NCBI RefSeq assembly: GCF_006345805.1
Contig: NC_043018.1
Span: forward strand, 24,552,001-24,616,000
Length of the DNA stretch: 64,000 nt
Reading direction: 5' to 3'
From: Octopus sinensis
Taxonomy: Eukaryota
Part shown: positions 1,462 to 64,000 of the stretch, piece after piece
Layout of the letters: each line of letters begins with the position of its first letter
Position numbering within the stretch: position 1 is the stretch's first letter
The notes under the pieces: generated by a model
Database searches by the model: none
Told to the model about the DNA's origin: nothing
Seen by the model: the letters and a program-made list of their open reading frames with translations, nothing else
Translations under genes and position numbers: made by a program

Positions 1462-1770
1462 CTGACAGAATCGTTACCGCATTGTATTTAGCTGCATTCC
1501 TTCCGGCTCTTTACGTTCTGAGTTTTATCCTCTCGGGGTCGATATAATCACCTTAATCCGTTTTTCTGTCCTTGTTTGTCCTTTCTGTGTTTAGCCCCTT
1601 GTATTTCGTCTGTCGCTACGTTCTGAGTTCAAATTTCGCCAAGGTCGACTTTGCATTTCACCCTTTCGGGGTTGATGAAATAAGGAGCAGTGAAACACTA
1701 GGGTCCATGCAATCGACAAGTTCCCTCCCCAAAAATTTCAGGCCTCGTGCCTTTAGTAGAAAGGATTATT
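1462..1770 (+). mobile_element. Meta-domain SINE family C, nested dimer (Tx1-type tail followed by rest of host copy)
   Basis: TTTAGCCCCTT tail joins GTATTTCGTCTG at 1601; ends with tail 2 AGAAAGGATTATT. Confidence 0.75.
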
Positions 1771-2919: not shown

Positions 2920-3268
2920 ATAATCTTTTTTGTTATAGGTACAAGGCCTGAAATTTTGGGGGAAGTGGCCTAGTTGCTTACATCGAACCCAGTACGGGAT
3001 TGGTATGTATTCCACCGAAAAGGGTAGTATTTGAATTCAGACCATAACGAATCGGAAGAAATACCTATTTCTTTATTACCCACAAGGGGATAAACATAGA
3101 GGGGATAAACAAGGACAGACATAGGTATTAAGTCGATTACATCGACCCCAGTGCGTAACTGGTACTTAATTTATCGACCTCGGCGGAATTTGAACTCAGA
3201 ACGCAATCGGAAGAAATACCGCTAAGCATTTTGTTAGGGTCACTAACGATTCTGCCAGCTTCGCCGCC
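2920..3268 (-). mobile_element. Old SINE C (tail 2) interrupted by young Tx1-tailed SINE C at 3066-3204
   Basis: 16-bp direct repeat AATCGGAAGAAATACC at 3050-3065 and 3205-3220. Confidence 0.85.
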
Positions 3269-8920: not shown

Positions 8921-9572
8921 TGTTTCTTTATTAGCCACACAGGGCTGCACACAGATAGAACAAATTACAAGGTAGAGCTTTTCTTTTGAAGGTTTAAAAA
9001 AAAAAAAAAGGAAGGGGGAGTTTCGATCAAAAGGGATCGTAAAAGGAGAGAAAGAGGACAAAAAAAAGGGGGGTTAAAAAAAAAGGGGGAGAGGGAAAAA
9101 AAAAATGATCAATAGGGATCGTTATCACAGAAATGTCAATATGAAGTGTAAAGGGGAGGACAGGTGAGGTTTACCCGTGGAAAGAAAAGCCTACGGAAAA
9201 GACCACGGTAACCTCGGTCAATGGAGTCACATGTTATATTTCTTTTTTTTTTTTTTTTTTTTTTTTGCAAATAAGCAACTCTCTGTTTTCAATTTCTGGG
9301 TTCATAGGATCATGCTCAAGGTGGCTTCGTCATTCATACGTGCCATTCTTGCTACATTCACCCATCTTTTTTTAAAACATTCGCTAGACAAAACTTGCCT
9401 CTCTACTCTCACTTTCCTTTTCAAGTGGTACTTGAAGAAGTTGATGAGAGATTGACCAGAGAGGAAAGTGTTTGTCTCCAATCCTTTCAGACGCGTCCAC
9501 CAGATACATTCTTTCGCCATAGCCACAAGGATGATGAAAATAGCTCTTCCTTCCCGTTTGAAGGAGGGAGGC
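8921..9572 (-). mobile_element. 5'-truncated Tx1/L1-group LINE, copy 1 (ORF2 C-terminus + 3'UTR)
   Basis: Encodes [15 protein letters not shown]...RWVNVARM..MIL*, homologous to ORF 22793-23605; ends GCCCTGTGTGGCTAATAAAGAAA; (GATA)n on both sides. Confidence 0.85.
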
Positions 9573-9598
9573 AGATAGATAGATAGATAGATAGATAG

Positions 9599-9657
<59 letters not shown>

Positions 9658-9726
9658 TAGATAGATAGATAGATAGTAGATAGATAGATAGATAGATAGA
9701 TAGACAGGCAGACAGATAGATAGATA

Positions 9727-10380
9727 TGTTTCTTTATTAGCCACACAGGGCTGCACACAGATAGAACAAATTACAAGGTAGAGCTTTTCTTTTGAAGGTT
9801 TAAAAAAAAAAAAAAAGGAAGGGGGAGTTTCGATCAAAAGGGATCGTAAAAGGAGAGAAAGAGGACAAAAAAAAGGGGGGTTAAAAAAAAAAGGGGGAGA
9901 GGGAAAAAAAAAATGATCAATAGGGATCGTTATCACAGAAATGTCAATATGAAGTGTAAAGGGGAGGACAGGTGAGGTTTACCCGTGGAAAGAAAAGCCT
10001 ACGGAAAAGACCACGGTAACCTCGGTCAATGGAGTCACATGTTATATTTCTTTTTTTTTTTTTTTTTTTTTTTTGCAAATAAGCAACTCTCTGTTTTCAA
10101 TTTCTGGGTTCATAGGATCATGCTCAAGGTGGCTTCGTCATTCATACGTGCCATTCTTGCTACATTCACCCATCTTTTTTTAAAACATTCGCTAGACAAA
10201 ACTTGCCTCTCTACTCTCACTTTCCTTTTCAAGTGGTACTTGAAGAAGTTGATGAGAGATTGACCAGAGAGGAAAGTGTTTGTCTCCAATCCTTTCAGAC
10301 GCGTCCACCAGATACATTCTTTCGCCATAGCCACAAGGATGATGAAAATAGCTCTTCCTTCCCGTTTGAAGGAGGGAGGC
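9727..10380 (-). mobile_element. Tx1 LINE copy 2, near-identical tandem duplicate of copy 1
   Basis: Same truncation point; appears to differ only in homopolymer lengths. Confidence 0.85.
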
Positions 10381-10523
<143 letters not shown>

Positions 10524-10532
10524 CAGGCAGAC

Positions 10533-10627
<95 letters not shown>

Positions 10628-10645
10628 TAGATAGATAGATAGATA

Positions 10646-11265
10646 TGTTTCTTTATTAACCACACAGGGCTACAAACAGACAGGACAAAATTACAAGCTA
10701 GAGCTTTTCTTTTGGGGGTAAAAGAAGGGGGTTTGGTTTTCAATCAAAAGGGATCGTAAATGGAAAGAAAGAGGACAAAGAAAGGGGGGGATAAAATAAA
10801 ATTTTAAAAAAGGGGGGGGGGGGGGAAATTTGATCAATAGGGATCGTTATCACAGAAATGTCAATATGAAGTGTAAAGGGGAGGACAGGTGAGGATTACC
10901 CATGGAAAGAAAAGCCTACGGAAAAGACCACGGTAACCTCGGTCAATGAAGTCACATGTTATATTTCTTTTTTTTTTTTTTTGCAAATAAGCAACTCTCT
11001 GTATTAATTTTTACATTTCATAGAATCATAGTCAAGGTGGCTTCGTCATTCATACGTGCCATCCTTGCTACATTCACCCATCTTTTTTTAAAACATTCAC
11101 TAGACAAAACTTGCCTCTCTACTCTCACTTTCCTCTTCAAGTGATACTTGAAGAAGTTGATGAGAGATTGACCAGAGAGGAAAGTGTTTGTCTCTAATCC
11201 TTTCAGGCGCGTCCACCAGATACATTCTTTCGCCATACTGCAGATGGATTCATCGACAGGAAGAA
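10646..11265 (-). mobile_element. Tx1 LINE copy 3, diverged, with an internal deletion near its 5' end
   Basis: Same ORF end and 3'UTR with substitutions; 3' end abuts (GATA)n. Confidence 0.8.
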
Positions 11266-56747: not shown

Positions 56748-57210
56748 GGTAAATGAACTGGCAGAATCGTTAGGCGGCGATCTGGCAGAAACGTTAGCAC
56801 GCCGGGCGAAATGCATAGCCGTATTTCGTCTGCCGTTACGTTCTGAGTTCAAATTCTGCCGAGGTCGACTTTGCCTTTCATCCTTTCGGGGTCGATAAAT
56901 TAAATACCAGTTACGCACTGGGGTCGATGTAATCGACTTAATACCTTTGTCTGTCCTTGTTTTCCCCCTCTATGTTTAACCCCTAGTGAGCAATAAAGAA
57001 ATAAGAATCGTTAGTGCTTCGCACAAAAGTGCTTAGCGCCATAAGTTCCTGCTGTTTGTGTTCTGAGATCGAATTCCGCCAAGGTGTACTCCACCTTTCA
57101 TCCTTTCGGTGACGAAAAAAGTAAAGTACCAGTCAAATACTGGGGTCGACGGAATTGACTTACCCCTCCACTCAAACTTGCTCGTCTCTTTGCCCTACTT
57201 AGAAAGAATT
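56748..57210 (+). mobile_element. Old SINE C interrupted by a full-length Tx1-tailed SINE C (56773-57003)
   Basis: TSD AGAATCGTTA at 56763-56772 and 57004-57013. Confidence 0.85.
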
Positions 57211-62784: not shown

Positions 62785-62884
62785 GTTTGAGTAACGTTTT
62801 AGCGTTTGAAGCTGTTGAATTTGTTCCTCTTGTTAAGATTTATTATGTTTTGTGAACCATTCTACTCGAGCTGGAGTCGTTCTG

Positions 62885-62924
<40 letters not shown>

Positions 62925-62927
62925 GTA

Positions 62928-63332
62928 TGGTGAGCTGGCAGAAACGTTAGCACGCCGGGCGAAATGTTTTGCAACATTTCGTCTGCCGCTACGTTCTGAG
63001 TTCAAATTCCGCCGAGGTCGACTTTGTCTTTCATCCTTTCGGGGTCGATAAATTAAGTACCAGTTACGCACTGGGGTCGATATAATCGACTTAATCCGTT
63101 TGTCTGTCCTTGTTTGTCCTCTCTGTGTGTAGCCTCTTGTGGGCAGTAAAGAAATAGGTATTTCGTCTGACTCTACATTCTGAGTTCAAATTCCGCCGAG
63201 GTCGACTTTGTCTTTCTTCCTTTCGAGGTCGATAAATTAAGTACCAGTTACGTACTGGGGTCGATCTAATCGACTGGCTCCCTCCCTCCAAATTTCAGGC
63301 CTTGTGCCTTGAGCAGAAAGGATTATTATTAT
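62928..63332 (+). mobile_element. SINE C nested dimer (Tx1-type tail, then rest of a tail-2 copy)
   Basis: Junction AAAGAAATA|GGTATTTCGTCTG at 63156/63157. Confidence 0.9.
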
Positions 63333-63387
63333 TTTTGGGGAAGTTCCTTCTGCTATCTTCATTGTCTCATAATGTTTTAATGTTCAT

Positions 63388-63595
63388 GCAGCGAGCTGAC
63401 AGAATCGTTAGCACGCTGGACGACATGCTTGGCGACATTTCGCCTGTTGCTGCATTTTGAGTTCAAATTCCGCCGAGGTTGATTTTGCCTTTCATCCCTT
63501 TCGAGGTCGATAAATTAAGTACCAGTTGCATATTAGGGTTGATCAAATCGACTGCCCCCTCCCCCCTTGTGCCAAAAGTAGAAAGGATTATTTTA
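63388..63595 (+). mobile_element. SINE C, tail 2
   Basis: Head, Meta core, GAAAGGATTATT tail. Confidence 0.88.
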
Positions 63596-64000
63596 TTTAT
63601 TTTCTGGGATGTTCCTTCCGCTGTCTTCATTGTCCCATAATGTTTTAATGTTCATAAATTCCGATGCTTTGCCCGGCATTGCAACATTCATAAGAAATTT
63701 CGATGTTATTTTATCGTTTGGTCTGCCGCAGTATCTATAGTCTAGGCAGTGAAATAGCCTGAATTGTGTTGCGGTTAGGGTTAGGAACACTTTGAAATTA
63801 CAGATTGAAAATTCAGAAAGCCATGATGAACTTCCGCTGTGAATCATACATGTAAAGTATTTTGAGGGTGATAAATGTAATTTTCTTATTTTCCTGTTAT
63901 TTTGGGTTTTTTTTTCTTTTACCTACTTCCTTATCCTCTAATTATAACTTTCATCATTAACTTTCCCAACAATAATTCCGCCATTGTCGACGGTTCAGGT

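Follow-up and report, generated by a model that had tools for sequence, protein, structure and literature searches.

The window, a 64-kb stretch of the Octopus sinensis genome, contains at 2920-3268 a composite SINE locus on the minus strand, in which a young insert with tail 1 lies inside an old tail-2 copy of the same family, SINE C. Positions within SINE C are numbered here along a 231-nt family consensus built in this analysis. Read along the minus strand, the locus begins with the host head (3221-3268; consensus positions 1-47), which contains an A-box-like motif and is followed by the 5' copy of a 16-bp target-site duplication (3205-3220) that starts at position 48 and includes letters private to the host. 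A young, 5'-truncated insert of 139 bp (3066-3204), with a B-box-like motif and a Tx1-like tail (about 3130-3066), separates this copy from the 3' copy of the duplication (3050-3065), and the remainder of the old tail-2 host occupies 2920-3049. As claimed in the original prediction, the host-private variant is present in both copies (3220-3205 and 3065-3050), which are identical. The further claim that the insert continues in register with the host stands only approximately, in that the two are joined near register but two letters off, over a 2-letter microhomology. The insert (3204-3066) also has a 27-bp internal deletion. The A-box-like match of the SINE C head falls at 11-21, and the B-box-like motif is one letter longer than the B-box consensus; an Rfam search with window 62880-63620 gave no match at the gathering score and no tRNA match.

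A single-copy contig from a related species, organism E, is an empty orthologous site with one copy of the 16-bp repeat. The contig matches window 2985-3065 with 3 differences (three runs, three studies) and past 3065 jumps to window 3221 onward, where 13 letters are identical, 6 are missing and 15 of the next 17 agree; the host head and a single copy of the repeat are present, and the insert is absent. Because organism E keeps the whole host with a single 16-bp copy, the locus represents an independent insertion, and the search for an empty-site orthologue thereby came out in favour of the prediction. Two runs from organism B (X2 and X5) read on into the insert, and X2 is near-identical to the window. 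The six host-head letters missing in the organism E orthologue (3234-3239) form a separate small indel.

The window contains nine tail-1 copies, eight with intact ends and one that is 3'-clipped at about 1600, in line with the predicted "nine or so", and the four nested composites predicted are all present. At 1462-1770 (plus strand), an old 3'-clipped tail-1 unit, from which the last ~19 tail letters are missing, gives way at about 1600 to a tail-2 host that resumes at position 49. At 56748-57210 (plus strand), an older host is interrupted at position 15 by a full-length tail-1 copy (56774-57003), flanked by an 11-bp duplication (56763-56773 and 57004-57014). The composite at 62928-63332 (plus strand) consists of a tail-1 unit with an insert-like head, after which the tail-2 host resumes at position 48 (63157); it has no separate host head, and no private letters are in common with the host at the junction. 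The proposal that three window hosts resume at the same position therefore holds exactly for 3065 and 63157 (position 48) and to within one letter near 1601, where the host resumes at position 49. Two tail-1 copies at 35995-36220 and 36221-36400 lie tail to tail on opposite strands, with a common 16-bp target read in both directions. A run of 100 N at 26728-26827 may be an assembly gap.

Frequency of position 48 as a target of SINE C

In the 2.72-Gb genome, exact-match patterns find tail 1 at 93,741 sites, and at 28,080 of these (30%) the tail is followed by 8 letters of position 48. A flank-blind sample consists of 75 10-kb stretches around the first 100 tails among the matches listed, the window, and 25 stretches chosen regardless of content, mostly from one chromosome; the first 30 loci were excluded from frequency estimates because the 4 flank letters of the query biased them. 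Among the 161 tails in this sample, 55 resume in SINE C at position 48 and 8 at position 15; a further 3 resume only a few letters away from position 48, 1 resumes before the head, and 94 lie in non-SINE DNA. These short, non-coding SINE copies are flanked by target-site duplications. The hosts at the 55 position-48 junctions carry tail 1 in 35 cases and tail 2 in 15, and 5 are cut short; the hosts are thus not mainly tail-2 copies, the type that the original prediction described for the window.

The rate at position 48 is 4-15%, depending on whether the 28,080 cases are related to the ~160,000 free exact sites or to the ~470,000 copies, both of them rough denominators derived from 1.06 Mb of sampled DNA, and on the treatment of arrays; the value of 4% results from collapsing arrays and dividing by the full set of ~470,000 copies. 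In the controls, the tail followed by the same 7 letters and A or G occurs 1,528 times, a rate of no more than 0.7% given some 210,000 non-SINE sites, and the tail followed by 4 letters and any letter other than T occurs 4,918 times over 8.7 million sites (0.05%), with 27 of 30 tail-plus-4-letter cases lying outside SINE C. Position 48 is therefore used about 5-20 times as often as the best-matched non-SINE sites, which agrees with the predicted enrichment of self-targeting over the frequency of the motif, and the upstream context adds less than twofold (16 of 36 versus a background of about 25%). An opposite-strand site within SINE C, at position 136, is found in 782 exact cases with clean duplications (L191-L210), 36 times less often than position 48 when an 11-letter pattern is compared with an 8-letter one.

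A Tx1-like LINE at the same position and its relatives

In two loci, a LINE ends directly before position 48. The corresponding young LINE family has 137 exact 3' ends, and in 53 of 54 distinct loci (30 picked by similarity and 30 by pattern, 6 in both) it lies at position 48, as assigned by script in 50 and by eye in 3. The sequence-specific, Tx1-type machinery of the original prediction thus appears in the form of a LINE family that itself occupies the site. When long stretches were fetched, 19 of 20 loci proved full length (5.35 kb) and 98.5-99.7% alike. The full-length loci start at a common point and are accompanied by a host head and by a duplication of 7-17 identical letters; exact duplications of 7-17 bp are seen in 21 of 22 LINE junctions, and the host letter at position 48 (C or G) is the same on both sides in 22 of 22 loci. 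The only locus away from position 48 (L289) is a SINE body that ends in 35 young-LINE-like letters and continues into non-SINE DNA, possibly a tail exchange.

ORF2 of this LINE has 1,134 codons with matches to Exo_endo_phos, RVT_1 and zf-RVT, and is open in 3 of the 8 copies checked, and the 520-codon frame of ORF1 contains a zf-CCHC match above the cut-off. ORF2 has the AP-type endonuclease, reverse transcriptase and C-terminal zinc finger expected of Tx1 clade LINEs, of which a separate ORF1 with a CCHC knuckle is a further feature. The best solved relative of ORF2 is that of L1 (E 1.8e-64); the LINE protein matches a protein automatically named TX1 149 kDa at 35%, and its nearest named relative, at 62%, is from Argonauta. 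The element at SINE position 48 is, from its sequence, a Tx1-like LINE with intact ORFs and a predicted endonuclease and reverse transcriptase. Older copies of the LINE (83-90% alike) are also at position 48 in 4 of 4 cases, which indicates that the lineage spans the time at which the SINE spread; the young LINE itself is younger than most SINE copies, which are 5.6% diverged.

The SINE shares its tail with Tx1-like LINEs, though not letter for letter. The SINE C tail agrees with the young LINE at 28 of 34 letters, no better than with three other Tx1-like families. One of the older LINE copies at position 48 (L371) has a tail that resembles the SINE consensus at 32 of 34 letters; it is one short piece and could be a chimera. 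Among the loci examined, an exact match to the SINE tail was found in none of the LINEs, and a relaxed pattern gave 4 loci. The SINE and the young LINE also differ in the first letter of the junction, which is G in 50 and C in 1 of 56 SINE junctions, whereas C is found at position 48 in 28 of 81 tail-1 monomers and in 12 of 22 young LINE hosts; this avoidance of C may reflect an earlier enzyme, different priming or pairing of the RNA end.

Relatives of the LINE are associated with other positions and other repeats. Of the 14 best matches to an old ORF1-only element with a knuckle and a Tx1-like tail (L346-L359), 12 lie at position 15 and the other 2 do not include the end of the element. SINE C itself is found at position 15 in 1,640 cases. 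Among the first 100 matches listed, C-type tails account for 92 of 100 at position 15, 5 of 100 at position 48 and 21 of 100 overall (counted by eye); this subfamily is taken to be older because C-type units tend to end arrays. A diverged sister group of the ORF1-only element (L360-L367) lies in front of a different short repeat in 7 of 11 weaker matches. A young sister LINE (L129:600-5090; L321-L345), 57% identical in ORF2 to the position-48 LINE, has a single junction motif in 25 of 25 matches, 23 of which run on as a different, tRNA-like SINE, and its tail agrees at 29 of 30 letters with the SINE C tail over the latter's upstream half. A tree built without named Tx1 or L1 rows groups the two SINE-targeting LINE families at only 83/96, and this grouping is not claimed. 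Several 3' pieces in the window (9344-11248 and 22832-23972) and at L131 and L205 belong to a further Tx1-like family whose tail is related; they are followed by a CTAT-type microsatellite.

Formation of the composites

A separate host head is kept in only 4 of 58 composites. Among 14 tail-2 composites, the head is host-like in 4, insert-like in 7 and unclear in 3, with overlapping score ranges; about a third thus retain the head of the host, while most have that of the insert instead, and the locus at 2920-3268, with its host head, is of the minority type. Host-private letters at 48-57 are common to both sides in 3 of 10 cases, which means that their expected presence in both duplication copies was confirmed at 2920-3268 without being general. 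A pairing of cDNA and host head similar to that proposed for R2 would fit the single-head composites, and the homology-assisted 5' junction of the original prediction is the favoured inference. The accompanying suggestion that a truncated insert regains a promoter from its host is possible from the anatomy, in a minority of cases; with 7 of 14 tail-2 composites insert-headed, such rescue would not be the rule. A hairpin is not put forward as a target signal: the head folds with the site at the edge of the loop (z -3.2), but L315 was inserted without the upstream arm.

SINE C likely borrows the endonuclease and reverse transcriptase of the Tx1-like LINE lineage by means of its tail and is hence likely sent into its own family. 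The observations behind this reading are the fixed site, the duplications of 7-17 bp, the older hosts, the empty orthologue, the LINE at the same base and the likeness of the tails. The LINE protein would nick the SINE at 47/48 and prime on SINE RNA, with a looser specificity in trans, as 58% of SINE tails lie elsewhere. The cDNA, which matches the host upstream of the nick, would then anneal to the host head, leaving one head, that of the insert more often than that of the host. Repeated insertions, together with some local duplication, would yield 184-bp arrays. The insertions of the older C-type subfamily at position 15 are probably the work of an earlier machinery from this group.

The same nesting could in principle come from amplification of a dimer formed once, which would account for the many composites with an outer duplication and a single head. 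However, the empty site at 2920-3268 and the age order contradict this: the host is more diverged than the insert in 13 of 13 tail-2 pairs, and nested tail-2 halves (11%) resemble free tail-2 copies (13%) rather than free tail-1 copies (5.6%). In addition, 0 of 595 locus pairs have two or more rare letters in common in both halves, and a Mantel test gives rho 0.13 (p 0.10). The halves of equal age and the linked variants of Alu-type dimeric SINEs were not found in the SINE C composites. An amplified dimer is accordingly refuted as a rule and is the least probable of the explanations considered, and the independent insertions of the original prediction are upheld; where the host carries tail 1, the order of ages is weak (host older in 18 versus 8, p 0.075). 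Tandem duplication of DNA, or copying on the same template, fits the arrays L022, L054, L088 and L008, whose units share private letters, and would explain why some tail-1/tail-1 junctions have rare letters in common across the whole unit (15-27% versus 2-5% after shuffling in 4 of the 6 bins beyond position 77, and 5-7% in the remaining two). These whole-unit letters argue that some of the tail-1/tail-1 junctions, roughly a fifth, are local duplications, and local homogenisation is seen in some arrays (L022, L054), unlike most junctions. As the main source of the junctions this process is nevertheless refuted and very improbable, given the empty site at 2920-3268 and that it can place neither a tail-1 unit before a tail-2 host nor a LINE at the same base, that most junctions have no rare letters in common, and that 37 of 118 first units of clusters already resume at position 48.

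A generic short target preference combined with a high density of SINEs draws on the fit of both SINE sites to the loose motif of non-SINE targets and on the coverage of SINE C, up to 5.8% of the sampled DNA. The same 7 letters outside the SINE are used at no more than 0.7%, compared with 4-15% at position 48, and the rarity of the opposite-strand site, the weak effect of upstream context (16 of 36) and the 53 of 54 LINE loci that lie at position 48 likewise contradict such a preference, which is largely refuted and only slightly more probable than the dimer. RNA-guided homing as the main cause, in which a read-through 3' extension pairs at a loosely cut site and the target is inherited from the source, is unlikely, although it is the strongest competitor. 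In its favour, the letters that come directly after the tail depend on the subfamily, in non-SINE DNA as well (flanks starting with GG in 11 of 16 for one subfamily and 0 of 20 for another), 50 of 56 junctions begin with G, and the rate climbs with the length of the match (0.05%, up to 0.7%, 4-15%). The three LINE loci L306, L314 and L316 also have in common, in the 5' copy of the duplication, a variant that is not the host's, which implies that the RNA carries target sequence at its 5' end. However, the host letter kept at position 48 in 22 of 22 LINE loci indicates a 3' junction without overwriting, and most non-SINE duplications agree from the first letter, in a test of overwriting that is weak and biased by selection. 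Furthermore, separate element families explain positions 48 and 15, and the gradient would be the same for an enzyme whose preferred site is long. RNA guidance may well contribute without being the main cause.

With targeting by the borrowed LINE machinery as the preferred reading, a wider picture can be drawn and is, on balance, credible: a closed parasite loop within a radiation of octopod Tx1-like LINEs, for which SINE families would serve as address-coded landing pads, with one base to a family. One SINE would have captured the tail of its parasite and then inserted into its own copies in tens of thousands of cases, young heads overwriting old ones, with the driver intact and probably active.

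Relation to known systems

Dewa is another L1/Tx1-group LINE with a fixed multicopy target. Like Tx1L, Keno, Kibi, Koshi and Dewa, the system described here involves an endonuclease-bearing LINE, a fixed multicopy target and duplications of 7-17 bp. Unlike in the Tx1L and Keno group, the target is an interspersed SINE of at least 400,000 copies, entered between A-box-like and B-box-like motifs, and three related families use three SINE positions. The fixed multicopy targets of the Tx1 group include Tx1D for Xenopus Tx1L and U2 for Keno, and Kibi and Koshi also have such targets, according to the parts of PMC4494074 consulted.

The closest parallel is provided by the crocodilian Tx1-Mar LINEs and their SINEU passengers, which have a fixed target inside Mariner-N4 (Kojima 2015, PMC4494074, in the portion consulted), with a specificity of 13-23% for SINEU-1/2 and 90% for SINEU-3. 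As far as that portion describes them, both systems have looser passengers, two hot positions used by different families, and tandem sequential insertions. In contrast to SINEU, the target of SINE C is the passenger's own family, in which the LINE-like tail belongs to the younger members, and an in-register insertion restores a SINE of normal appearance. At the 5' junction of R2, the cDNA pairs with upstream target DNA via strand invasion or recombination, as stated in the consulted part of PMC6895275; the likeness lies in an RNA with target-like 5' sequence, which fits the single-head composites. R2, as described there, has a restriction-like endonuclease and an rDNA target, whereas the homology here would be that of the SINE's own head. 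For an octopus, the available text of PMC13282606 gives 13 recently active L1-Tx1 families and contains no information on their targets. A literature search turned up neither a Tx1 family that targets a SINE nor a description of SINE C homing, either of which Repbase, subscription journals or supplements may hold. The present case would be a transposon-targeting Tx1 system whose target is the passenger SINE's own family.

The near-identical LINEs with single-base targets and their 57%-identical sisters with other targets form a natural series in which the reading of DNA by the endonuclease can be followed, and tens of thousands of natural junctions provide data on how 5' junctions form. A SINE can offer its own driver a safe harbour, and existing SINE copies can be renewed where they lie. 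Nested copies also skew the annotation and dating of repeats in these genomes.

Tandem SINEs and SINE-derived satellites are multimers or arrays of SINE parts (PMC10702118, in the part consulted); compared with those described there, the units here begin at one base set by the LINE and are mostly separate insertions. Arrays of 7 or more 184-bp units that share private letters occur at L054-L060 and L022-L024, and one of them has a higher-order structure, such that these arrays could be seeds of SINE-derived satellites.
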